A DNA stretch of 12,094 nt from a virus. Lineage: Duplodnaviria > Heunggongvirae > Uroviricota > Caudoviricetes. The stretch lies in IMG/VR virus record IMGVR_UViG_2671180338_000009, one strand, 5' to 3'. Below, piece after piece: positions 1-12,094 of the stretch. Both the position numbers and the translations under genes were made by a program. The stretch's first letter is position 1. The number at the start of each line of letters is the position of its first letter. Below the pieces are notes generated by a model. The model had not been told where the DNA came from. It worked only from the letters and a program-made list of their open reading frames with translations, and did not search any database.

Positions 1-185
1 GATACTGGTTGTCTGGAGATTCAGGGGGCCAGTCTACCACCCCTGATGTCAGGTAGGAAAACACCATATGTTTCTGCTCTGTTTTTCCTTAGAAATAGGC
101 ATCCTTGCTGGAACAAAGCGAGCAGCTATATTGACTCTATGTTGTGAGTGTGTTGATCCGTTCTGAGTTAATACATTTAAGTTGC

Positions 186-1295
186 TCACTCTGTTTCTGC
201 TATCCATTCCGGGATTTTTGCCTCAAGCTCAAGCTGCGTGGTAAAGCCGCTGTTATCAATGGTGTGCTCGGCTTTTGCAATAATCCAGTCCTGATTATCA
301 ATCTCGCTTTTAAATCCTGTTACCGTGCCATGCATTTCGGGGTAGAGTTCTGCACGTCCATGCGCCAGTGTGATGGAGAATGATGCGGCTCCGCGTTGTA
401 GCTGCTGCCACTTTGCCGCCGCTGCACGTCTTGCTGCCTGCTCGTTCTGATAAGTTTTGCGTAACACAAACACGTTGCCTTCCGCACCTTCCATATAGTC
501 GCCTTCCCGGCTGCTGCTTTTCTCCTTTTTTGGTTTTGACGGTTTGCGGCGTTTCACGCTGACTTTTTTCTTTTTCCCGTAATTAAGATCAAGCCAGTAA
601 GCGCGTACCCCCGTATACGCTTCGCGGTCAGCAATGCGGAACTGATGGCGATCGCCGCTGCTGCGTGTGATGGCGAACGAGGGCAACGGCTGGCCCTGTG
701 CGTTCACGCCACCACCGGGCATGATGAATAACAGATTACCGCTTTTTACCGTGGTGATTGCGCCCAGCATTTCCGCCATGCGCGTAAGGAAGGACATGTC
801 GCTTTCTTCGGTCTGGTCGGCGTGGTCGATTTCGATATCCATCAGCATTTCGCTGATTTGCGGTTTCAGACCATACCGATGAGCGATGGCGGATACCACA
901 CGCTCAACGGTCACATCATGCCAGGACACCTCACGTTTAACGTTAAATTCAGCCCGAAAATCTGCGCTTCTGGCTGAAACAGTCAGCCTGTCCGGCGGTC
1001 CTTCGTGAGCGATTTCATCAACAATGTAAGTGCCTTTTTCTGTCAGCGGTTCTCCCTTCCAGCCAATGAGAACCGTCAGGCGCGCGCCCCGTGGCGGTAG
1101 CTGCAACTGACCATCCGCATCATCCAGCGTGATGGTGAGCTGGTCCGCCTCAAATCCCCGGTTGTCGGTCAGTGACAGGCTCATCAGGCGCTCTGCCACG
1201 CCTGACAGCGTTTTACCCTCCGCGAGAATATCAAAATCCGGCATTTTCACGGGGTCTGTGCCCTGACTGAGCAATTGCATGGTGGTGTCGGTCAT
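186..1295 (-). CDS. D: P2 gpD-like tail protein (phage late control gene D family)
   Basis: Minus-strand ORF from ATG at 1293-1295 (MTDTTMQLLSQG...), about 369 aa, with a purine-rich Shine-Dalgarno (GGGAGGGAG, revcomp of 1299-1307) 3 nt upstream. The ORF-track start at 1427 adds an S/P/T/R-rich extension that looks non-coding. Assignment rests on size and on context next to FI-FII-E-T-U; family resemblance is recalled, not searched. Alternative start ATG at 1280. Confidence 0.6.
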   Translation of the reverse strand: MTDTTMQLLSQGTDPVKMPDFDILAEGKTLSGVAERLMSLSLTDNRGFEADQLTITLDDADGQLQLPPRGARLTVLIGWKGEPLTEKGTYIVDEIAHEGPPDRLTVSARSADFRAEFNVKREVSWHDVTVERVVSAIAHRYGLKPQISEMLMDIEIDHADQTEESDMSFLTRMAEMLGAITTVKSGNLLFIMPGGGVNAQGQPLPSFAITRSSGDRHQFRIADREAYTGVRAYWLDLNYGKKKKVSVKRRKPSKPKKEKSSSREGDYMEGAEGNVFVLRKTYQNEQAARRAAAAKWQQLQRGAASFSITLAHGRAELYPEMHGTVTGFKSEIDNQDWIIAKAEHTIDNSGFTTQLELEAKIPEWIAETE

Positions 1296-1452
1296 CTGCT
1301 CCCTCCCTGTGTGGCATGGTCGCATGTGCGTGCGGAGGGGGTTACTGCTTTTTGTTGTCGCCGTGGCGGGAGAATGGCGCAGGGGTGAGATTACGCGCGT
1401 GGTGGGTGATGATTGTTGCCGAATCATTTAACGGATACAAGGGGTTGAAGCT
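1296..1452. promoter_or_regulatory. Divergent intergenic region between D and FI; expected site of the late tail-operon promoter
   Basis: 157-bp non-coding gap between divergent start codons. In P2 the FI operon is driven by an Ogr-activated late promoter, but I could not find a clean TGT-N12-ACA activator site by eye. Confidence 0.3.
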
Positions 1453-2637
1453 ATGAGTGAAACTCGTTTTCATGGTGCCCGTGTTACGGAAAATACCGAC
1501 CTGGTAACAGCGATTAACGATGTTGATTCCAGCGTTATCGGTATCGTGGCAACGGCGGATGATGCGGACGCGGAGCTGTTCCCGCTGAACAAGCCCACAC
1601 TGCTGCCCCGCGTCAATGACGTGCTGGGAAAATGCGGAACAACGGGGACGCTTTATCGTGCGCTTAAGGCCATCGCAGACCAGGTGAGCACAAAGGTGAT
1701 CGTCGTTCGCGTGGCTGAACACAAAGAAGAAGACGGAAAAACGCAGGATCAACTGGTTATCGGTGGTTCTGAATCTGACGGCAGCTATACGGGGATGTAT
1801 GCGCTGCTTGTTGCAGAGCAGGATGAAAGCATCGGATACCGTCCGCGTATTCTGGCCGCGCCGGAGCTGGACACGGAGGCGGTGACAAAATCCCTGTGCG
1901 TGATTGCGGGTAAACTGCGCGCGTTTGTGTATGCCTCATGTCATGACTGTAACACGATGGCTGAGGCAATTACCTACCGCCAGAAATTCAACGAACGTGA
2001 GGTGATGCTCTTATGGCCGGACTTCATCGCCTACAACCCGAAAAGTGGCAAAAACGAAACGTTCCCCGCGCCTGCCTATGCGTGCGGCCTTCGTGCGTAC
2101 ATTGACCATGAGCAGGGCTGGCACAAATCGCTGTCCAACGTTCCGGTTAAAAATGTGCTGGGGATGTCCAGGCATGTGTTCTGGTCGTTGCAGGCCGAAG
2201 ACAGTGATGCCAACAGCCTCAACAACAAAGAAATCACGACCATTATTCGTCGCAACGGGTTCCGCTTCTGGGGCAACCGCACACCGGAAACGAACGCCTA
2301 CATCTTTGAGGTGTATACCCGAACCGCACAGGTGCTGGCTGATTCAATTGCGGAAGCGCAGTTTGAAACCATCGACAGTCCACTGACGCCTGCGAACGTG
2401 AAGGATGTTATCGGTGCCATCAGGGCAAAACTGGATTCACTGGTTACTGCCGGGAAACTGATTGGGGCGTCGTGCTGGTATGACGTGGTGGATAACGGCA
2501 CCACGAATTTACGTCAGGGGCGCGTGCGTATTCGCTACAAATATACGCCTGTTCCCCCGCTGGAAGACATGGAGCTTTACCAGTCGTTTACTGATGAATT
2601 CTTTGGTCCCGCATTTGCGGTGCTGGGAGGTGCCTGA
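1453..2637 (+). CDS. FI: Contractile tail sheath protein (P2 gpFI-like)
   Basis: 394-aa ORF. Conserved blocks recalled from P2 FI: DADAE.FPLNKP, KLRAF, EQGWHK.LSNV, IRR.GFRFWGNRT, YTRTAQV, YKYTPVPPLE. Stop codon overlaps the FII start (TGATG). Confidence 0.9.
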   Translation: MSETRFHGARVTENTDLVTAINDVDSSVIGIVATADDADAELFPLNKPTLLPRVNDVLGKCGTTGTLYRALKAIADQVSTKVIVVRVAEHKEEDGKTQDQLVIGGSESDGSYTGMYALLVAEQDESIGYRPRILAAPELDTEAVTKSLCVIAGKLRAFVYASCHDCNTMAEAITYRQKFNEREVMLLWPDFIAYNPKSGKNETFPAPAYACGLRAYIDHEQGWHKSLSNVPVKNVLGMSRHVFWSLQAEDSDANSLNNKEITTIIRRNGFRFWGNRTPETNAYIFEVYTRTAQVLADSIAEAQFETIDSPLTPANVKDVIGAIRAKLDSLVTAGKLIGASCWYDVVDNGTTNLRQGRVRIRYKYTPVPPLEDMELYQSFTDEFFGPAFAVLGGA

Positions 2638-3149
2638 TGGCTGTACCAAAACATCTTCGCTTTTTTACGCTGTTTGTGGATGGTGAAAACGAAGTGGGTA
2701 AGGTGACGTCCGTCACTCTGCCTAAGCTGACGCGCAAAACCGACAGCTACCGGGGTGGTGGCATGATGGGAGCGGTAAGTATTGATCTCGGCCTGGATGA
2801 CTCCGCGCTTGATGCGAGCTTTGTCATGGGGGGCGCAGTTCGTGAGCTGTTCCTTAAGTATGGCGGCACGATTGACGGTACGCTGCTGCGTTTTGCGGGT
2901 GAATACTACACCGACGCTGAAAGCGACCTGTATGAAGTCGAAATGCGCGGACGTGTGACGGAAATTGATATGGGGGAAGCCAAACAGGGCGAAGCCACAT
3001 CACACACTTACGCCATTAAAAACACCTACTACAAGCTGAGTGTTAACGATCGCCCGTTGTGGGAGATTGACCTGCTGAACTTCATTTACCGGAAGGACGG
3101 CAGGGACATTGTGCCCGATCGCATCCGTTCCGCGCTCGGGCTTGGCTGA
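2637..3149 (+). CDS. FII: Tail tube protein (P2 gpFII-like)
   Basis: 170-aa ORF directly after FI with translational coupling (ATG overlaps the FI stop). Motifs VTLPKLTRK, YRGGGM, DLGLDD and RFAG.Y resemble P2 FII. Confidence 0.9.
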   Translation: MAVPKHLRFFTLFVDGENEVGKVTSVTLPKLTRKTDSYRGGGMMGAVSIDLGLDDSALDASFVMGGAVRELFLKYGGTIDGTLLRFAGEYYTDAESDLYEVEMRGRVTEIDMGEAKQGEATSHTYAIKNTYYKLSVNDRPLWEIDLLNFIYRKDGRDIVPDRIRSALGLG

Positions 3150-3203
3150 TAAGTAATATGCAGGCGGCGCAGTGCGTCGCCTCTGACTGAAAGGAGTTTC
3201 CTG

Positions 3204-3569
3204 ATGAAAGAGACGAAAAACATCGATACCGAAAACACGGTCGTTGCTGACACTGTGAAAGAAACCAGTGAGCGTGGCGTAAAACTTACCCAACCAATTG
3301 AGCGAGGCGGCGAAAAAATCACGTATGTGGAGATCACCGGGGCTATTGAGCAGGCTGGATCTCTGCGAGATTTGTCGCTGTCTGATGTGCTGAATTTGAA
3401 AGCGGAATCCATGTTTACGCTGCTGTCACGCGTGACATCACCGCGACTGGATGAAGTGACGATCAAAAAAATGGCATCCCGTGACTTTATTCAGTTATGT
3501 GTGGTTGCCGTAAATTTTTTGAGCGGTGCGGACTCTGGCGAGAAGAACGAACAGGCGACGGAAGCCTGA
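3204..3569 (+). CDS. E: Tail assembly chaperone gpE (zero-frame product)
   Basis: 121-aa ORF with AAGGAG Shine-Dalgarno at 3191-3196, in the position between tube and tape measure. Contains the TTTTTTG slippery heptamer in frame. Confidence 0.8.
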   Translation: MKETKNIDTENTVVADTVKETSERGVKLTQPIERGGEKITYVEITGAIEQAGSLRDLSLSDVLNLKAESMFTLLSRVTSPRLDEVTIKKMASRDFIQLCVVAVNFLSGADSGEKNEQATEA

Positions 3570-3733
3570 TCACGGTTGTGTGCTTTGAGCACATAGAAGA
3601 CTTTGTGGCGGATATTGCCGCCATTTTTAACTGGTCGCCCGCCGAAATCTTCATGATGACGCCCGGCGAAGTGGTTAGCTGGCGTGAGCGGGCGGCACTT
3701 CGCAGCGGGAATGCAGACAATGAAGACTCTTGA
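3204..3733 (+). CDS. E': Tail assembly chaperone E+E' fusion made by programmed -1 frameshift (join 3204..3521 with 3521..3733)
   Basis: Slippery heptamer T_TTT_TTG at 3515-3521 is in X_XXY_YYZ phase with the E frame. The -1 frame is open from there to TGA at 3731-3733 and matches ORF 3497..3733. This is analogous to P2 E/E' and lambda G/GT. The fusion overlaps the start of T. Confidence 0.7.
3515..3521 (+). other. -1 ribosomal frameshift slippery site (TTTTTTG)
   Basis: Seen directly in the sequence; phase is correct relative to the E reading frame. Confidence 0.7.
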
Positions 3734-6527
3734 TATCCGGGTCGCTTTCAGCGCCGTTGACAGGCTGACCCGGCCTGCCGAAAACGCCCGCCGCCTGATG
3801 GGGCAGTTTGGTGACTCCATCCAGCGAACGCAGGGGGCGATCAAAAATCTCGAGCGTCAGGCGCGTTCATTTGAGCGCGCCCGTGACGCTGTCAGTAAAG
3901 CGGATGCGGGCATCGTGAAAGCACGACGCCAGCTTAACGCCCTTAATCAGTTACAACGCACGGGTACAGTGCTCAGCGAAAAACAACAAAAGCTGATGCA
4001 GCAGTTAAGCACCCGGCTTGAACGCCTGAATGAATCGCGCACACGGGAAATTCAGAAAATGCGGGAACTTGGCGGAGAGCTGAAACGCCACGGCATTTCC
4101 CTGACAGGCAGCGATAACACCATCCAGCAGGCCATCAGACGCACCGGACAATACAACAACCAGCTTGAACGCGAACGGCGGGCGCTTGCGCGTGTAACGC
4201 AGGCGCGTGAGCGGTATTCACGCGCGCAGGAAACAGCGGGAAAACTGAAAACAGGTGGTGCGCTGGCAACAGGTGCGGCGGCAGCGGGCGGCTATGCTGC
4301 CGGGCGTTTTTTGCAGCCCGCTATCGGGTTCGGGAAAGAGATGTCCCGTGTTCAGGCACTGACGCGAATCGATAAAAACAGCCCGCAGTTTAAGGCGCTG
4401 CGTGAGCAGGCGTTAAAACTTGGCTCTGAAACGCAGTTCACCGCAGGCGATGCCGCCAGTGGACAGGCATTTCTTGCAATGGCTGGTTTCACACCGCAGG
4501 CCATTCAGGCTGCGCTTCCCGGCGTGCTGAGCATGGCAACGGCTGGCGGTATGGACCTCGGCGAGACGGCGGATATTGGTTCCAATATCCTGACGCAGTT
4601 CGGCCTCTCTGCTGACCAGATGGACCGGGTCGGTGACACACTTACCGCAGCGTTTACCCGTACCAACACTGACCTTCGCGCACTGGGCGAAACCATGAAA
4701 TATGCAGGTCCGGTGGCGGGTAAGCTGGGAATATCGCTGGAGCAGGCCGCAGCGATGGCGGGCGTGCTGGCGAAGATGGGTATCAGGGGGAGTGATGCAG
4801 GTACAGCGTTGCGTAAAAGCCTGGCCAATCTGTCATCACCGCCAAAGGCAGCGGCAGAAGCACTGAAAGAGCTGGGGGTGTCAGTTGCTGACGCCAAAGG
4901 CAAAATGCGCCCGATGGAGAATGTGCTGGCCGATCTCTATAAAGCCACCCGCAAATACGGGGAGGTTGACCGGGTATCGTTCTTTAAGGACATTGCCGGA
5001 GAAGAGGCTTTCACATCATTTATGGGCCTCGTTGATGCGGCAGGTGACGGCTTCTTAGCCAAACTGAGAAAAGAACTTGAAGGCGCGCGCGGTGAGGCAG
5101 AACGCACGGCAAAGGTTATGGCCAATAACCTTGATGGCAACCTGAAATCACTCGGCAGTGCATGGGAAGGTCTGCGTATTCGCATCAGTGATCTGGTTGA
5201 CGGTCCGCTGCGTTCTGTCACGCAGTGGCTCACGCGGGTTGTCTCAAAGGTGACGGCGCTGGCGCAGGCCCACCCGGCACTGACGCGCCAGTTACTGATA
5301 GCGGGAGGCGCACTGCTGGCGACAACAGCAACGGTTGGTTCGTTGTCTCTGGTTATTGGGGTGCTTCACGGGAAGCTGGCTACGTTGCGTCTCGGTTTTT
5401 CTCTCCTGACCGAATCAATGAATGTTGTCAGGGTTCTGCCTGCATTATGGGGAATGGTGACGGGTTCCGTTTCTTTACTTGGTGGCGCTATCGGGGCGCT
5501 GTTCAGTCCGGTTAGTCTTATCGTGGCTGCGCTTGCCGGAGCTGCCGTTCTTATCTGGAAATACTGGGATCCCATCAGGGCATTTTTTGCCGGGGTGTTC
5601 AGCGGGATTATGGAAAGGCTGACCCCGTTGCGCGAAACCTTTGAACGGTTTGGCCCTGTTTTTGATGTCGTGCGCGATGGGATTATTCAGGTCTTTAACT
5701 GGTTTAAATCGCTGCTGTCACCGATGGAGTCCAGCAAGGAAACGCTGGATAAATGTGCCAGTGCTGGCGAGATATTCGGTAACGTTCTTGGCGGTGCGTT
5801 ACAACTTGTTCTGACACCTGCAAAAATGCTACTGGATACGCTGGCGTGGATACTTGAAAAACTTGGCGTCCTTCCGGATGAAGCGGAAAGGGCGCGCAAG
5901 AAAATCGAAGACGCACAGCGTGCGGCCATTCTTCAGGACAAGGTTGCCTTGCTTCAGGGGGACCTGGCGAAAATCAATCCGCCGAAGCCTGTGGAAAATG
6001 GCAATGGCACCGGAGGTGATAAACCCAAAGACAACAAACCGCTCACAGACAGCAATACCGGGACGCTACGCAGACTCAGCAAAATTGCTGATAACACAGG
6101 TAAGCTGGTTGATGAGACGAAAAAACGCATTGGCCCCGGCGATATTGTCTTTAAGAACCTGCCCCGCGCACTTGCTGTTCGTGGGGAGTGGCAGGAGCGG
6201 AAGATTGCGCAGGTCAGTAAGCCTGCCCCCGCAATTAATATCACACCCGTGGTCCCGGCTCCGCTGCCTCCGGCGCTGGTCCCTGTTGTTGCGGCCAGCT
6301 CCCGCCCGGTGGCGGAGGCCATACGCTCTCCAGTGGCATCAGTTCCTGTAACTTCCCGTAACCGGGAGCCTGTTGCCTCCGGATTTGGTGGTGAAATTCA
6401 TGTTCATCTGCATAACGTTGTTACGCAGAATCCCCGCGAACTGGCGAAACTGGTCGGTGAAATGGTCAGGGCAGAAATGGAACGGCGCGCCCGTGCCGGG
6501 CGTGGCAGTTTTTACGATAAAGATTGA
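3711..6527 (+). CDS. T: Tail tape measure protein (P2 gpT-like)
   Basis: About 938-aa ORF after E/E'. N-terminal half is coiled-coil-like and rich in Q/R/E/L; there is a central Ala/Gly-rich hydrophobic stretch and a C-terminal Pro/Val-rich tail. Start taken as ATG 3711 (alternative ATG 3720); the ORF-track start at 3684 is a GTG extension. Confidence 0.85.
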   Translation: MQTMKTLDIRVAFSAVDRLTRPAENARRLMGQFGDSIQRTQGAIKNLERQARSFERARDAVSKADAGIVKARRQLNALNQLQRTGTVLSEKQQKLMQQLSTRLERLNESRTREIQKMRELGGELKRHGISLTGSDNTIQQAIRRTGQYNNQLERERRALARVTQARERYSRAQETAGKLKTGGALATGAAAAGGYAAGRFLQPAIGFGKEMSRVQALTRIDKNSPQFKALREQALKLGSETQFTAGDAASGQAFLAMAGFTPQAIQAALPGVLSMATAGGMDLGETADIGSNILTQFGLSADQMDRVGDTLTAAFTRTNTDLRALGETMKYAGPVAGKLGISLEQAAAMAGVLAKMGIRGSDAGTALRKSLANLSSPPKAAAEALKELGVSVADAKGKMRPMENVLADLYKATRKYGEVDRVSFFKDIAGEEAFTSFMGLVDAAGDGFLAKLRKELEGARGEAERTAKVMANNLDGNLKSLGSAWEGLRIRISDLVDGPLRSVTQWLTRVVSKVTALAQAHPALTRQLLIAGGALLATTATVGSLSLVIGVLHGKLATLRLGFSLLTESMNVVRVLPALWGMVTGSVSLLGGAIGALFSPVSLIVAALAGAAVLIWKYWDPIRAFFAGVFSGIMERLTPLRETFERFGPVFDVVRDGIIQVFNWFKSLLSPMESSKETLDKCASAGEIFGNVLGGALQLVLTPAKMLLDTLAWILEKLGVLPDEAERARKKIEDAQRAAILQDKVALLQGDLAKINPPKPVENGNGTGGDKPKDNKPLTDSNTGTLRRLSKIADNTGKLVDETKKRIGPGDIVFKNLPRALAVRGEWQERKIAQVSKPAPAINITPVVPAPLPPALVPVVAASSRPVAEAIRSPVASVPVTSRNREPVASGFGGEIHVHLHNVVTQNPRELAKLVGEMVRAEMERRARAGRGSFYDKD

Positions 6528-6539
6528 GGAGTCATGGCC

Positions 6540-7028
6540 ATGATGATGATCTACGGCATGTTTGTTTTTGAGCTGCGTACATTGCCGCATCAGCAGTTAC
6601 AGCAAAACAAAAGCTGGCGGCATGTGAAAAATGAACGCGTTAACCGTTCGGCAAGCTGGCAGTATATCGGTGCAGGTGATGAGCGCATCGTTCTTTCTGG
6701 TGTGCTTTATCCTGAAATTACAGGTGGCGAAGTGTCGCTGTCGCTGCTGACCACGCAGGCGTATACAGGACGACCCTGGCCTCTGATTGATGGCGTCGGG
6801 CAGATTTACGGCATGTATGTCCTGACCGAAACGAATACGACCCGCTCCGAGTTTGATCGCTACGGTAAGGCGAAAAAGATAGAATTTTCACTGACTCTTG
6901 AACGCTGTGATGAGGATTTGCGGGAGCGCCTGCAATCCTCATCGTTCAGCGATATGCTGTCCGGCTTCAAAGATAAGGTAACATCATCCCTTAACAGCGC
7001 GGCCAGTTCAGTTAAAGGGTTGTTCTGA
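6540..7028 (+). CDS. U: Tail protein gpU-like
   Basis: MMMIYGMFVFELRTLP... resembles the P2 gpU N-terminus. GAGGA Shine-Dalgarno at 6526-6530 gives 9-nt spacing to ATG 6540; ATG 6534 is an alternative start. Confidence 0.85.
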   Translation: MMMIYGMFVFELRTLPHQQLQQNKSWRHVKNERVNRSASWQYIGAGDERIVLSGVLYPEITGGEVSLSLLTTQAYTGRPWPLIDGVGQIYGMYVLTETNTTRSEFDRYGKAKKIEFSLTLERCDEDLRERLQSSSFSDMLSGFKDKVTSSLNSAASSVKGLF

Positions 7029-7039
7029 TTTAACACAAA

Positions 7040-7075
7040 AACCGCTAATGGTCAGATTAGCGGTTATTTTGTTTC
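7040..7075. terminator. Bidirectional rho-independent terminator between convergent U and pin
   Basis: 10-bp stem AACCGCTAAT (7040-7049) pairs with ATTAGCGGTT (7056-7065) around a 6-nt loop. It is followed by ATTTTGTTT on the + strand and by TTTGTGTT on the - strand. Confidence 0.5.
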
Positions 7076-7651
7076 CTGACTCTTCTCTATTGTTCCGATT
7101 GATTCTCCTGCGGGGTGGTAACGATAAATCGTCGATATACCAATGCCGTAAATTATTGCCAGTTGTTTTCTGTCGTGCCCGTTTTTGATCAGCCTTGCTA
7201 TTTGCTCATGCTGTTCTTTTGTCAGCTTCGGTCGACGTCCGCCTGTGCGCCCCCGTGCGCGTGCTGCCGCCAGTCCGGCCAGTGTACGTTCAACAATTAA
7301 TTCACGTTCCATTTCAGCCAGGGCACCCATCACGTGGAAGAAAAAACGCCCCATTGGAGAAGATGTATCTATGCTGTCGGTCAGACTGCGAAAATTAATT
7401 CCTCGCTCCCGTAGTTCCCCGACGAGAGAAATCAGATGTTTCATGCTTCGCCCGAGGCGATCCAGTTTCCAGACAACCAGCGTGTCACCTTTTTGAAGGC
7501 GCTTTAAAGCGCGTTTTAATCCCGGTCGGTCTGTCTTTGTCCCGCTTAATTTATCTTCAAATATTTGTTCACATCCTGCACAAACAAGAGCGTTTCGTTG
7601 CAGGTCTGTATTCTGGTCATTTGTTGATACCCTTACATAGCCAATCAGCAC
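7064..7651 (-). CDS. pin: Serine DNA invertase, Hin/Gin/Pin/Cin family
   Basis: N-terminus (M)LIGYVRVSTNDQNTDLQRNAL... with the catalytic Ser in the GYVRVS motif and a C-terminal HTH. It is near-identical over long stretches to Gin/Pin as I recall them. Start taken as GTG at 7649-7651 with GGGAGA Shine-Dalgarno upstream; the ORF-track start at 7675 is also GTG. Confidence 0.85.
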   Translation of the reverse strand: MLIGYVRVSTNDQNTDLQRNALVCAGCEQIFEDKLSGTKTDRPGLKRALKRLQKGDTLVVWKLDRLGRSMKHLISLVGELRERGINFRSLTDSIDTSSPMGRFFFHVMGALAEMERELIVERTLAGLAAARARGRTGGRRPKLTKEQHEQIARLIKNGHDRKQLAIIYGIGISTIYRYHPAGESIGTIEKSQETK

Positions 7652-7705
7652 GCTGAATCTCCCGTCCAAAAGCACAAATCATGCCATGCAGGCCAGAAAC
7701 CGCCA

Positions 7706-7733
7706 TTATCTAAAACCTCGGTTTACAGGAAAC
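7706..7733. other. gix/pix-like invertase crossover site 1
   Basis: TTATCTAAAACCTCGGTTTACAGGAAAC. Its reverse complement TTCCTGTAAACCGAGGTTTTAGATAA differs at one position from the Mu gix sequence as I recall it. The 2-bp core TC is at 7717-7718. It sits 55 bp upstream of the invertase start. Confidence 0.75.
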
Positions 7734-8412
7734 GGTAAATCAGGCTTCTGGCGCATTACAGAAAAACCAGAACGGCGCAGATATTCCGGGGAAAGATACC
7801 TTCACCAAAAATATTGGTGCCTGCCGCGCATATAGCTCATGGCTGAATATTGGTGGCGATAGTCAGGTCTGGACAACCGCGCAATTTATTTCGTGGCTGG
7901 AGAGTCAGGGAGCATTTAACCATCCTTACTGGATGTGCAAAGGCTCATGGGCTTATGCAAATAATAAGGTCATTACAGATACAGGTTGCGGAAATATTTG
8001 TCTTGCAGGTGCTGTGGTGGAAGTTATTGGCACTCGCGGCGCAATGACCATACGCGTTACCACGCCGAGCACGTCCAGCGGTGGCGGAATTACTAACGCT
8101 CAATTCACTTATATTAATCATGGTGATGCTTACGCTCCTGGCTGGCGACGAGACTACAACACGAAAAATCAACAACCTGCATTTGCTTTAGGGCAAACAG
8201 GAAGCACTGTCGGAAATGATAAAGCTGTTGGCTGGAACTGGAATAGCGGGGTCTATAACGCAAACATTGGTGGCGCATCGACATTAATCCTCCACTTCAA
8301 TATGAATACGGGGAGCTGCCCTGCTGTACAGTTCCGCGTGAATTACAGGAACGGCGGTATTTTTTATCGTTCAGCGCGTGATGGTTATGGCTTTGAAGCT
8401 GACTGGTCAGAG
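7714..8412 (+). pseudogene. 5' portion of a variable tail-fibre C-terminal domain, truncated by IS insertion
   Basis: The frame is open from just after TAA 7711-7713 (inside the gix site) to the IS boundary, with no start codon of its own. It begins LGLQETVNQASGALQKNQNG..., typical of an invertible-segment tail-fibre module that is expressed only when fused to the constant part. It ends ...GFEADWSE, and the IS left end supplies the TGA stop at 8413-8415. Confidence 0.7.
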
Positions 8413-8476
8413 TGAGGTAGCCTGAGTTTAACGGACACTCCTTCCTGAAATAGAATGGCATCAGAAGGAGCTAATA

Positions 8477-8779
8477 ATGAGCAGAAAAACCCAACGTTAC
8501 TCTAAAGAGTTCAAAGCCGAAGCTGTCAGAACGGTTCTTGAAAATCAACTTTCGATCAGTGAAGGCGCTTCCCGATTATCTCTTCCTGAAGGCACTTTAG
8601 GACAATGGGTTACCGCCGCCAGAAAAGGGCTCGGTACTCCTGGTTCCCGCACGGTGGCTGAACTGGAATCTGAAATTCTGCAACTGCGTAAGGCGTTAAA
8701 TGAAGCTCGCCTTGAGCGAGATATATTAAAAAAAGCAACAGCGTATTTTGCACAGGAGTCGCTGAAAAATACGCGTTAA
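8477..8779 (+). CDS. IS3-family transposase OrfA (HTH and leucine-zipper part)
   Basis: 100-aa ORF MSRKTQRYSKEFKAEAVRTV... with the slippery run A_AAA_AAA_G at 8728-8735 near its 3' end. Confidence 0.9.
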   Translation: MSRKTQRYSKEFKAEAVRTVLENQLSISEGASRLSLPEGTLGQWVTAARKGLGTPGSRTVAELESEILQLRKALNEARLERDILKKATAYFAQESLKNTR

Positions 8780-9633
8780 TCGAACAATGGCGACAACAAT
8801 TTCCCATTGAAGCGATGTGTCAGGTATTTGGTGTATCCAGGAGCGGTTATTACAACTGGGTACAGCATGAACCCTCAGACAGAAAACAAAGTGATGAGCG
8901 GCTAAAACTGGAGATTAAGGTGGCACATATCCGCACTCGCGAAACATATGGAACCCGGCGGCTCCAGACGGAGCTGGCAGAGAATGGCATCATCGTTGGT
9001 CGTGACCGACTGGCACGTCTTCGTAAGGAGCTAAGGCTACGCTGTAAGCAGAAACGCAAGTTCAGAGCGACTACGAACTCGAACCACAATCTGCCAGTTG
9101 CGCCAAATCTGCTGAACCAGACGTTCGCTCCTACAGCACCAAATCAGGTCTGGGTGGCGGACCTGACGTATGTTGCCACACAGGAGGGATGGTTGTACCT
9201 CGCTGGCATCAAAGATGTTTATACGTGCGAAATTGTCGGCTACGCCATGGGAGAGCGCATGACAAAAGAGCTGACAGGTAAAGCCCTGTTTATGGCGCTC
9301 AGGAGCCAGCGCCCACCTGCCGGGCTAATCCACCACTCTGATCGAGGTTCACAGTACTGCGCATACGATTACCGGGTCATACAGGAGCAGTCTGGTCTGA
9401 AAACATCAATGTCGCGTAAAGGTAACTGTTACGACAACGCTCCGATGGAAAGCTTCTGGGGAACGCTGAAAAATGAGAGCCTGAGCCACTATCGTTTTAA
9501 TAACCGGGATGAAGCCATCTCAGTAATACGGGAATACATTGAGATTTTCTACAATCGTCAGCGTCGTCACTCTCGTCTGGGGAATATCTCCCCGGCAGCC
9601 TTCAGGGAAAAATATCATCAGATGGCTGCTTAA
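8477..9633 (+). CDS. IS3-family transposase OrfAB (-1 frameshift fusion; OrfB DDE catalytic domain 8815..9633)
   Basis: OrfB is in the -1 frame relative to OrfA, and that frame is open from 8734. DDE-type motifs are present (HSDRGSQY, SMSRKGNCYDNAPMESFWGTLKNE, YNRQRRHSRLG). Confidence 0.9.
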
Positions 9634-9676
9634 AAAAAGAACAAATGGTAGTGTCCGCTATTGCCAGTACACCTCA

Positions 9677-10693
9677 ACGGCAGGCAAGTTTCCGTATTTT
9701 ACGGGGAATGATGTCGCCAGCCTGGCAACCCTGACAAAAGTCGGGCGGGATATTCTTGCGAAATCGACCGTTGCTGCCGTTATCGAATACCTCGGTTTAC
9801 AGGAAACGGTAAACAAGGCTGGTAACGCCGTTCAGCGTTCCGGCGATAAAATGACCGGAGAACTGAAAATTGGCACGGTGAATGCGCTGCGAATTTTCAA
9901 TGATACCTTCGGTCTAATTTTCCGTCGTTCAGAAGATTTTCTTCATTTCATTCCGACGGCTGAAGGACAAGGCGAAAACGGTAATATCGGCCCATTAAGG
10001 CCATTCGCTATAAATCTGAGAACAGGTGCTATATCTGTCAGCCACGGGGCCAAAATTAAAGGAGGTCTAGCTATTGGAGCTACTGATAACGCACTGGGTG
10101 AAAACTCCATTGTTCTGGGAGATAACGACACCGGATTTAGGCAAGATGGAGATGGTATTATTAGCTTCTATTCAAATGGTTCGCGCATCGGACATATTGA
10201 TGAGTTAGGATTACATCTTTATAAAGATATTGAATCTAATGGCAGCAATTTTAGATTAAAAAGTAATTACCGCCACCACATTACATTCGCCAACGAAGAC
10301 GGAAGAATTCGTATGTTTTTGTGGAAAGATAACGGTGGTGATGGTGTTCATATTAATAACGGTTCAGATGGTGGTGGTGATTTCATTTTTAAAACAGATG
10401 GGGGATTTGCGCTGGGAAGTGGTGCGCAAGTTGCGTCTAGTGGCGATATTTATGGTTCAGTGTGGGAAAACAACTGGTTAAGCACATGGCTGCATAATCA
10501 TGTCGTTCGGGATATTCGTCTTGGCAGCATTGAATATAAAAACGTATGGCGCGACTACGGCTTTGGCGATGCGTCAGGTTATGTTTTAACAGCCGCAATT
10601 AACAGCAATGCGGATGATATTGTCGACACTGTTGCCAGAAGGCCAATTCAGAAATTGATTGGGGGAATATGGTACAACGTGGGGAGTGTTTAA
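9677..10693 (+). pseudogene. 5'-truncated tail-fibre gene (P2 gpH / Mu S type): 38 codons of constant region, embedded gix site, variable C-terminal domain
   Basis: The frame is open immediately from the IS right end (TAGKFPYFTGNDVASLATLTKVGRDILAKSTVAAVIEYLGLQETVNKAG...) and ends ...[11 protein letters not shown], like the P2 H C-terminus I recall (…GTWYNVAQV). There is no start codon or promoter of its own; the ORF-track start at 9539 lies inside the IS. Confidence 0.75.
9780..9807. other. gix/pix-like invertase crossover site 2 (inside tail-fibre coding sequence)
   Basis: TTATCGAATACCTCGGTTTACAGGAAAC. Sequence 9790-9813 is identical over 24 bp to 7716-7739 around site 1. It is on the same strand and in the same orientation as site 1 in the present arrangement. 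Confidence 0.65.
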
Positions 10694-10694
10694 G

Positions 10695-11222
10695 ATGATG
10701 CACCTGAAAAATATTAAGGCCGGGAATCCGAAAACACCGGAACAATACCAGCTAACTAAAAAAGCGGGCGTGGTATGGCTCTTTTGCGAAGATGGCAAAA
10801 ACTGGTATGAGGAACAAAAGAATTTTCAGCCAGACACCATAAAAATTGCTTACGATGAGAACAACATCATCGTTGCTGTCAGTAAAGACGTTTCAACTAT
10901 TAATCCTGAAGGGCTAAGCATAGTTGAAGTTCCTGATATTACGGCAAATCGTCACGCAGACAATAACGGAAAATGGATGTTTCTGGATGGTAAAGTAGTA
11001 AAGAGGGAATATACAGAACAGGAACTGCAACAACAGGCCGAATCACAAAAGGCCGCATTGCTTTCCGAAGCTGAATCAGTCATCCAGCCGCTGGAACGCG
11101 CTGTCAGGCTGAATATGGCGACGGACGAGGAACGCACACGACTGGAAGCATGGGAACGCTACAGTGTTCTGGTCAGCCGTGTGGATACGGCAAAGCCAGA
11201 ATGGCCACAAAAGCCTGAGTAA
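10695..11222 (+). CDS. tfa: Tail-fibre assembly chaperone (Tfa / P2 gpG-like), partner of the + strand variable domain
   Basis: Starts [23 protein letters not shown]... at ATG 10695, 1 nt after the tail-fibre stop. Its N-terminal ~45 aa are shared with the convergent paralogue and the C-terminus diverges. Confidence 0.85.
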
Positions 11223-11227
11223 AAATT

Positions 11228-11247
11228 AAGGCCCGATATCGGGCCTT
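11228..11247. terminator. Perfect 20-bp palindrome; bidirectional terminator between convergent tfa genes
   Basis: AAGGCCCGATATCGGGCCTT lies 5 bp after the tfa stop and 3 bp after the opposite tfa stop, flanked by A-rich and T-rich sequence. Confidence 0.55.
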
Positions 11248-11250
11248 GTT

Positions 11251-11784
11251 TCATTCTGGTTGTTCGGGAAACGTTACTGGCAGGCTGGAGGTGTCTGTGG
11301 ATTCGACCTTCTGCGCATAGAGCATCCACTCGGTTAATTTTTGTTTATTCTCGTCGGAAATAATGCCCAGCCGTAGCTGTGAGTCCCATAGCTGGGTTTT
11401 ATCCCTGACGAGCTGTAGCAGGCTTTGCTTTTCATTTTCCGCTTGTTGCCTCTGCTCTTCCCCGGTATAAGTTCGCTTTATCACTACGCCATCTTTGAAC
11501 ATCCATTTACCTGAAATATCAGCCCGGCGATTTGCTGTAATATCAGGAACCTCAACGACGCTTGCGCCTTCCGGATTAATTGCTGAAACATCCTTTTCAA
11601 TACAAATAATAACGCCGTTGTGGTCATAGACCATTTTCAACGTATCAGGCTGAAAGTTCTTTTGTTCCTCATACCAGTTTTTCCCATCCTCTGTATAAAG
11701 CCATTTGATGTTAAATTGTTTCGTTAGCTGGTATTGCTCTTTTGTTTCAGGATTACCAGCAGAAATGTTTTTTAAGTGCATCAT
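11251..11784 (-). CDS. tfa: Tail-fibre assembly chaperone, alternative copy (Tfa'), partner of the - strand variable domain
   Basis: Starts MMHLKNISAGNPETKEQYQLTKQ... and is convergent with the + strand tfa. Its start lies 2 nt downstream of the stop of the - strand tail-fibre fragment. Confidence 0.85.
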   Translation of the reverse strand: MMHLKNISAGNPETKEQYQLTKQFNIKWLYTEDGKNWYEEQKNFQPDTLKMVYDHNGVIICIEKDVSAINPEGASVVEVPDITANRRADISGKWMFKDGVVIKRTYTGEEQRQQAENEKQSLLQLVRDKTQLWDSQLRLGIISDENKQKLTEWMLYAQKVESTDTSSLPVTFPEQPE

Positions 11785-11786
11785 CG

Positions 11787-12053
11787 TTAAATACTCCCCG
11801 CGTTATACCACGTCCCATTAATGCAATACTGAATTGGCCTTGCCTGAGTTGTATCAATTAGTTCATCTCTGTTTGAGTTAACGGAACCGGTAACAACATA
11901 ACCTGACCTGTCAGACCATCCGGGACCATTCCATGTCTGAACAGATAACAGACCACCAAGGCGAATACCTGTAATAAACCTTGAGTTACATTCTGCCTGC
12001 GTATATGCACCAACATCTCCCGCAGAGGGTTTGCGGGTTGTGGTGTAAAACTC
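11787..12053 (-). pseudogene. 3' portion of the variable tail-fibre C-terminal domain (the other half of 7714..8412)
   Basis: Hand translation of the - strand frame gives EFYTTTRKPSAGDVGAYTQAECNSRFITGIRLGGLLSVQTWNGPGWSDRSGYVVTGSVNSNRDELIDTTQARPIQYCINGTWYNAGSI, then a stop at 11787-11789. The frame is open right up to the IS boundary at 12053 and has no start codon; it is absent from the ORF track for that reason. Confidence 0.7.
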
Positions 12054-12094
12054 TGAGGTGTACTGGCAATAGCGGACACTACCATTTGTTCTTT
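12054..12094 (-). mobile_element. Terminal 41 bp (right-end inverted repeat) of a second, inverted IS600-like copy, cut by the window edge
   Basis: 12054-12094 is the exact reverse complement of 9636-9676, the right end of the complete IS. Identity stops precisely at the IS terminus. Confidence 0.75.

Follow-up and report, generated by a model that had tools for sequence, protein, structure and literature searches.

A Mu-type Gin/gix tail-fibre switch with an IS600-broken arm in a P88-like prophage contig

The 12,094-nucleotide (nt) stretch that we analysed, virus record IMGVR_UViG_2671180338_000009 and called the window throughout, is the draft contig CXBJ01000144.1 (assembly GCA_001257935.1). 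It carries a Gin/Pin-type serine DNA invertase beside P2-type tail genes, two gix crossover sites, and two tail-fibre arms that each consist of a variable tip and a Tfa chaperone. One of the tips, similar to that of Mu S', is cut by the insertion sequence IS600; the two junctions between tip and element are true ones, and the tip can be rebuilt across them without a seam. The locus is very probably a Mu-type Gin/gix switch in a P88-like prophage, with the S'-like arm broken by IS600 and the order of the contig not established.

The invertase, its crossover sites and the two fibre arms

The invertase gene (7064-7651, minus strand) starts with GTG and encodes 195 amino acids (aa) in an apparently intact frame. 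The product matches the Pfam families Resolvase (PF00239, 1.3e-50) and HTH_7 (PF02796, 1.6e-13), is 86% identical to Gin of Mu and 78% to PinE of e14, and its top matches among solved structures are those of Gin (4m6f and 3uj3, E about 1e-100). Residues 1-120 differ from Gin at just two positions, and this stretch includes YVRVS9TNDQ with Ser9, the catalytic nucleophile in Gin (PMC3575834), so that both the N-terminal resolvase domain and the nucleophilic serine of the Gin/Pin/Hin/Cin family are present. Further on, the DNA-binding domain of Hin (1hcr) aligns to residues 139-182, where the invertases have a C-terminal helix-turn-helix with a Q..RL motif that contacts Fis (PMC3798978); EQIARL, as read from the sequence, fits this invertase-specific motif, and the window protein thus has the C-terminal domain of the family as well. 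The protein is a mosaic: its catalytic domain is nearly identical to Gin, also at the DNA level, and the last roughly 60 residues, which form the DNA-binding domain, have diverged from Gin and end in an 11-residue extension (the C-terminus corresponds to window 7064-7300).

When the DNA is aligned with Mu and D108, the 108 coding nt at the 5' end of the gene, the GTG start included, are 100% identical to Mu gin. We take these first 108 nt of gin to be the region that holds the Fis-dependent enhancer of Mu, which Kahmann and co-workers reportedly located in gin in 1985. By this identity the window would also have its enhancer at the 5' end of the invertase gene, near one of the gix sites.

The site next to the invertase, gix1, reads TTATCTAAAACCTCGGTTTACAGGAA (7706-7731, plus strand), differs from Mu gix by one mismatch and is identical to gixR of D108, which is the invertase-proximal site of that phage. 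The other, gix2, reads TTATCGAATACCTCGGTTTACAGGAA (9780-9805, plus strand), has two mismatches to Mu gix and lies at the boundary between the constant and the variable part of a fibre gene. The Mu gix query was checked against NC_000929 at both G-segment boundaries, and a search of 200 shuffles with it gave zero matches at such a level. Both are sites of 26 bp, as in the invertase family, where two inverted half-sites of 12 bp flank a 2-bp core, and they share the core TC. In the contig both stand on the plus strand, within a 60-nt direct repeat (D1), with a spacing of 2,074 nt. The initial annotation had proposed a Gin/Pin-type invertase beside a near-consensus gix, and this is borne out by the Pfam matches, by the identity to Gin and by the single mismatch of gix1. 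It had also placed a second gix inside a fibre gene at the constant/variable boundary; the site is there, but what stands in front of it is a short stump that follows directly on an IS600 and a scaffold seam.

This stump comprises the final 34 codons of the constant region (9678-9779, plus strand). Its amino acids match those of P2 H over the same stretch at all positions except the first aligned one, and they include the gix-encoded EYLGLQETVN. Full H genes in relatives encode 656 or 678 aa, and of the shared constant N-terminal exon of the fibre the window has these 34 codons and no more.

Behind gix2 lies one complete variable tail-fibre domain, Sv_B (9806-10693, plus strand; Pfam gp37_trimer), which does not resemble Mu Sv and shares 38% identity with P2 H and about 30% with P1 S. 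Its assembly chaperone tfa_B (10695-11222, plus strand; PF02413) has 82% identity to Mu U and 79% to P2 G. Sv_B is 100% identical in five other loci (L025, L026, L028, L029 and L030 in our numbering), and the exact tfa_B protein is present in six draft contigs, the window contig among them. Convergent with tfa_B runs tfa_C (11251-11784, minus strand; PF02413), the chaperone of the S'-like tip and 98% identical to Mu U'. Between the two tfa genes a hairpin search found a perfect palindrome (11227-11248), a bidirectional terminator, and D108 has terminators annotated at the equivalent place.

The S'-like tip itself is in two pieces, which lie 3.6 kb apart and on opposite strands. Sv_A (7714-8412, plus strand), the piece beside the invertase, holds the 5' 233 codons, in a frame that begins at gix1, and ends at the IS600 target GAG at 8410-8412; it is 100% identical to S. 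sonnei 53G and runs into IS600 without a tfa next to it. The other piece, Sv_C3' (11787-12053, minus strand), starts at a second copy of GAG (12051-12053), holds the 3' 88 codons and the stop, and is located upstream of tfa_C. When the halves are rejoined at GAG they give an open reading frame (ORF) of 320 aa with 98% identity to Mu S' over its variable part, and in E. coli T28R and 720632, L026 and L029, where the gene is intact, the two are contiguous.

Two tip-and-Tfa arms thus converge on the hairpin in the manner of the Mu G segment, with the S'-like tip split by IS600. The convergent pair of chaperones (both PF02413) around a terminator stands as first annotated, and the idea of two whole tips does not. 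The annotated strong difference between the arms was confirmed: the Sv_B and S'-like tips are 25% identical overall, and tfa_B and tfa_C, which are 69% identical over residues 1-120, fall to 28% beyond. Neither of the findings that had been named as telling against a switch, an invertase and sites that fail to align with Gin and gix, or tips that are near-identical, was made.

The IS600 insertion and the scaffold seam

The IS600 in the window (8413-9676, plus strand) is a complete element of the IS3 family. It has the 1,264 bp and the TG...CA ends of IS600, is 99.8-100% identical to annotated copies, and contains orfA (8477-8779) and orfB (to 9633) with an A7G slippery site at 8728 for the frameshift between them and the Pfam domains HTH_Tnp_1 and rve. 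Around the insertion point the intact tip reads ...TGGTCAGAGTTTTACACC..., whereas the window has ...TGGTCAGAG/TGAGGTAG at the left end of the element and, on the other strand, ...CACCTCA/GAGTTTTACACC at the right end (the slash marks the junction), which gives the 3-bp target duplication GAG. The second of these junctions lies at the very end of the contig, where the last 41 nt of the right end of IS600 (12054-12094, minus strand) are inverted with respect to 9636-9676 and 100% complementary to them (I3), and where the contig stops. Identical junctions between IS600 and tip are also found in L003 and L025. One IS600 insertion, with GAG duplicated, splits the Mu-S'-like tip, and since the element sits inside the tip this arm is unable to make a fibre. 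Whichever scenario for the order of the contig applies, the S'-like arm cannot function and no complete fibre gene lies in the window, and as the contig is drawn it holds neither a working nor a complete switch.

IS600 has struck this type of cassette at other places as well. Independent insertions are found in a tfa gene of E. coli 720632 (L002, 13239-14502) and in tfa_C of a draft isolate (L028, 4200-5463), and when insertions in gixR are counted the cassette has been hit at at least four different positions. The gixR insertions are those of four complete S. sonnei genomes, CP026836, UGZB01000001, CP180280 and CP029794 (L015/L019 as against L020/L022), which carry IS600 in the gix equivalent to 7706-7731. 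The position is identical in all of them, in the outer half of the invertase-proximal site, TTATCTAAAAC/IS600/AACCTCGG..., with the duplication AAC. The invertible segment has one orientation in two of these genomes and the other orientation in the remaining two. The end of IS600 together with the AAC duplication rebuilds CTCAAACC where the original site has CTAAAACC, and judged from this likeness the hybrid of gix and IS600 may retain the ability to recombine; alternatively, the four shared insertions could mark a hotspot for insertion.

The order of the window contig depends on a single base. Position 9677 is an A in the window and an N in the copy of CXBJ01000144.1 that we fetched, and over the fetched part (window 2695-12094; L027) this is the sole difference between the two. 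The N directly follows the last base of IS600, and the sequence after it begins mid-gene in the constant region of the fibre, a region that continues upstream without any insertion sequence in L028, L026 and P88. An N at this place and a stump that starts mid-gene mean that there is no read-supported junction between IS600 and the constant region, nor any second target duplication. At its far end, the contig terminus, the segment carries the 41-nt piece of IS600, which fits a k-mer overlap. The segment 9678-12094 is thus held by the seam and by the right end of IS600, and its orientation relative to 1-9676, and hence the direct order of the gix sites, is not established; in intact relatives the sites are inverted.

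Single Ns at IS600 ends occur in sister assemblies of the series too. In L025 (GCA_001253915.1) there are single-N seams at 6434, 10624, 12106 and 16387, and in L028 there is one at 5464. In the L025 scaffold, moreover, a contig of 1.5 kb stands between two complete copies of IS600, where a single insertion would be expected, and the stump that follows its N begins 51 nt further in than that of the window. Adjacencies that flank IS600 are unreliable in this assembly series. We considered L025 as independent support for the order of the contig, and rejected it as such for its four seams and for the misplaced 1.5-kb contig. An earlier explanation with two IS600 insertions and an inversion between them, in which ACG at 9677-9679 was the second duplication, was likewise withdrawn on account of the N at 9677 and of the stump being mid-gene in relatives, and it is weighed below as a rival.

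Searches for the junction gave little. Among complete E. coli genomes no locus covered at least 80% of the query and no long-read genome had the junction of the window, an exact junction scan of species-representative genomes gave 0 matches, and a 160-aa ORF specific to the junction was matched in just one contig, of 649 bp. At the other end of the window, positions 1-35 coincide with the edge of an IS2 that in S. sonnei 53G lies between gpD and a gene with a PIN_4 domain (L009, about 4998-6282). With its left end at the edge of IS2 and its right end in IS600, the contig is bounded by insertion sequences at both ends. The case calls for caution, as direct gix repeats and a tip in two pieces arose here from the insertion of an insertion sequence plus a one-base seam that was hidden when an N was replaced by a base.

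Inversion in relatives and the order of the segment

Intact forms of the locus are found in E. coli T28R, E. coli 720632, P88 and S. sonnei 53G. In all of them D on the minus strand is followed by FI, FII, E, E', T and U on the plus strand, then by the invertase on the minus strand, the cassette, and H, I, J, W and V on the minus strand. The switch itself consists there of the constant part of H, a gix, a first tip with its Tfa, a convergent second Tfa with its tip, an inverted gix and the invertase. The invertase, aided by host Fis on the enhancer in its own 5' coding region, would cleave at the central TC of each gix site, and the rotation of the DNA that follows would join the alternative tip and chaperone to the constant part. 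For Mu and Hin it has been described how invertase dimers bind the two inverted sites and are assembled by the Fis-bound enhancer at a branch of supercoiled DNA, where cleavage by Ser9 at the 2-bp core and a 180-degree rotation of subunits produce the inversion (PMC3575834, PMC4817059, PMC3798978). From the enhancer complex wild-type enzymes give inversion only (PMC4817059), and a direct order of the gix sites, if real, would thus leave the switch inert apart from rare deletion.

The segment does occur in both orientations among loci that encode the identical 935-aa tape measure, which is an observation at the level of assemblies and concerns relatives, not the window isolate. H has 678 aa in 53G (L009) and in L011 and L012, and 656 aa in L007, L008, L013 and L023 (CP026802), where 53G and CP026802 are complete genomes. 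As far as ...EYLGLQETVN the two proteins do not differ, and beyond it they diverge. Both orientations among loci with the same tape measure mean that the switch flips in this lineage, and the mixed orientations that the initial annotation had suggested looking for in relatives with an intact switch were thus found, in assemblies. In one further S. sonnei assembly (L010, 9927-11897) the S'-fused H is called as two ORFs of 377 and 247 aa with a gap of 94 nt, which points to a frameshift or a nonsense mutation close to where the S' tip begins.

For the window we lean, with somewhat less than even confidence, towards this same switch in its canonical orientation. The simplest structure would have a single IS600 and the segment 9678-12094 reversed, which would make the gix sites inverted and put Sv_B and tfa_B behind the constant part. 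The order would then be the invertase on the minus strand, gix1, the S'-like tip with IS600 inside it and tfa_C, followed by the convergent tfa_B and Sv_B, an inverted gix2 and the constant part of H, and the two true junctions do connect the right-hand ends of 1-9676 and of 9678-12094 with each other. Such an order is the architecture of P88 and T28R with the invertase-adjacent arm knocked out. The complete genome of T28R has a cassette of the same type inside a P88-like prophage, and L026 has Sv_B, tfa_B, tfa_C and S' joined to P2-type H, I and J with no N between them.

Several observations weigh against the canonical orientation. The deposited scaffold orients 9678-12094 so that the gix sites are direct, and L025 likewise joins the right end of IS600 to the constant-region stump, which may reflect a real second IS600 near that stump. 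The variant of the stump is that of lambdoid Stf (L025, L028) and of P88, and not that of H in S. sonnei 53G; furthermore, the S. sonnei loci with the identical tape measure have a Mu-S-like arm opposite S'-U' and not Sv_B. A different prophage may thus be the source of the right-hand segment. Nor was the junction present in any long-read genome among the complete E. coli and species-representative genomes searched.

The likeliest of the alternatives, although we consider it rather unlikely, is that the scaffold is a chimera of two switches in one genome. In this case 1-9676 would belong to the P88-like prophage and 9678-12094 to a lambdoid prophage (Lom-Stf) with a remnant of an invertase and with a cassette that shares a 100% identical S'-U' half, and IS600 could sit in either copy. 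Sv_A, Sv_C3' and tfa_C are 100% identical in 53G and in the contigs that bear Sv_B, so that graphs built from short reads would collapse them. Sv_B and tfa_B sit behind a lambdoid Stf with Pfam phage_tail_N in L028, and they adjoin the remnant of an invertase in L029 (an ORF of 60 aa) and in L025 (a DNA fragment of the 5' end of pin). The Stf/P88 variant of the stump and the Mu-S-like arm of the S. sonnei loci with the identical tape measure fit a chimera too. Both loci that were cited for the canonical orientation speak against it, L026 by the N-free connection of Sv_B, tfa_B, tfa_C and S' to P2-type H, I and J, and T28R by the same cassette type in a P88-like prophage of a complete genome; in addition, the window is unbroken from the invertase through Sv_A into IS600 over 1-9676.

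That the order of the contig is real is in our view improbable. It would require a second, inverted IS600 within the constant part of the fibre gene or close to it, and homologous recombination between the two copies that flipped the 2.4-kb segment. The gix sites would then be direct and 2,074 bp apart, and an invertase that depends on Fis and the enhancer would invert nothing, with at most a rare deletion of 7719-9792. Taken at face value the contig agrees with this, both in the gix repeat D1 and in the inverted IS600 ends I3, and the GAG duplication is split as it should be, with one copy on the outer side of one IS600 end and the other on the inner side of the other. The scaffold of L025 links the right end of IS600 to the stump as well, and a segment between inverted IS600 copies can take either orientation, between which short reads cannot distinguish. 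On the other hand, the junction between IS600 and stump is an N and not sequence, and the stump has no k-mer overlap with IS600, whereas the opposite end of the segment does. The start of the stump moreover differs between the window and L025, which leaves neither a defined insertion point nor a second target duplication, and the arrangement is absent from all complete genomes searched.

A real but odd order could also have come about by exchange between two prophage switches that both bear gix in one S. sonnei genome, which we consider less probable again. One switch would be that of the P88-like prophage and the other that of a lambdoid prophage with an invertase remnant, and the two would have IS600 copies and a 100% identical S'-U' half in common. 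If it were true, the sole intact Gin-type invertase, that of the P88-like prophage, would service both fibre switches in trans, and recombination mediated by IS600 or by gix would scramble the two switches and leave direct gix repeats behind.

An intact, operating switch within 7064-11790, with inverted gix sites around two complete arms, is next to impossible: every type of component is present and the invertase looks intact, but IS600 interrupts one tip, the 3' part of which falls outside this interval, the gix sites are direct in the contig and the constant exon is missing, and the sequence itself thus contradicts it. The annotated Mu G-segment architecture therefore stands for the family and the parts. 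The contig as deposited departs from it in its direct gix sites and its missing constant exon, and the annotated extent leaves out the 3' piece of the tip and the second IS600 end.

The host prophage and comparison with known systems

The window is a draft contig of Shigella sonnei type with the tail module of a P88-like, P2-related prophage. Over 1-7800 it shares 99.96% identity with S. sonnei 53G, and the nearest sequenced phage is Escherichia phage P88 (Xuanwuvirus, Peduoviridae), with about 95% nt identity overall. The module begins with a gene for a gpD-like baseplate hub (186-1295, minus strand; Pfam PF05954, GPD; 369 aa in the identical S. sonnei loci), which is transcribed away from the sheath operon. 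Then come, on the plus strand, the sheath FI (1453-2637), the tube FII (2637-3149), E (3204-3569, with E' to 3733), the tape measure (3720-6527) and gpU (6534-7028). A hairpin with a 10-bp stem (7040-7065), a bidirectional terminator for both strands, lies between gpU and the invertase gene. GPD and GpU were identified by Pfam on the window itself, and the sheath, tube, GpE and tape measure as ORFs in the window with Pfam matches on loci that are 99.9% identical. The homologues of FI, FII, E, E', T, U and D of a P2-like (Peduoviridae) tail module are all there, and the P2-type tail genes of the initial annotation are thereby confirmed.

In P88, T28R, 720632 and S. sonnei (L001, L004, L024) the block FI-FII-E-E'-T-U is inverted relative to gpD/ogr and to H-I-J-W-V, and gpD is divergent from FI. 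In P2 itself FI to U and D have the same direction as H-G, with D within the F operon, whereas FI to U are flipped relative to D and H in the group of the window.

The closest relatives of the locus are P88 and the prophages of T28R, 720632, 53G and Citrobacter phiSM, which have the same gene order and whose records already carry annotations of a 'DNA invertase' and of fibre and tfa genes, two of each. They differ from the window in being uninterrupted, or in having IS600 elsewhere. The paper on P88 characterises the fibre and mentions neither inversion nor the invertase.

The G segment and Gin of Mu and D108, and also of SfMu, are the known system that the switch resembles most in its parts. 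The invertase is 86% identical, the gix sites are one to two bases off that of Mu, S' and U' are 98% and U 82% identical, and the tfa genes converge on a bidirectional terminator in the same way. In contrast to Mu, the host element of the window is a P2-type prophage and not a transposable phage, Sv_B is unrelated to Mu Sv, the last roughly 60 residues of the invertase diverge, and the S' arm is cut by IS600.

The Pin systems of e14, Rac and Qin, Cin of P1 and Hin of Salmonella belong to the same family of invertases (PinE is 78% identical), and the phage systems among them share the logic of swapping fibre tips. Their fibre parts are more distant, with e14 TfaE only about 27% identical to tfa_C and P1 S about 30% to Sv_B, and Hin controls flagellin and not fibres. 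P2 shares the type of tail genes, the stump that matches its H, and tfa_B, which is 79% identical to its G, but P2 has no invertase and no second arm. Compared in this way, the locus is a G segment of the Mu type joined to a P2-type tail module, and P2 H already shows this mosaic.

Fibre switches of the Gin/gix type have been textbook knowledge since the 1980s. The type of switch found here is already known, its parts are 82-98% identical to those of Mu, and the locus is annotated in P88 and in many complete genomes of E. coli and Shigella. The sole departures of the window from that known locus are the damage by IS600 and the assembly seam, and its value lies less in discovery, of which it offers little, than in being a clean example of IS600-driven prophage decay in Shigella.

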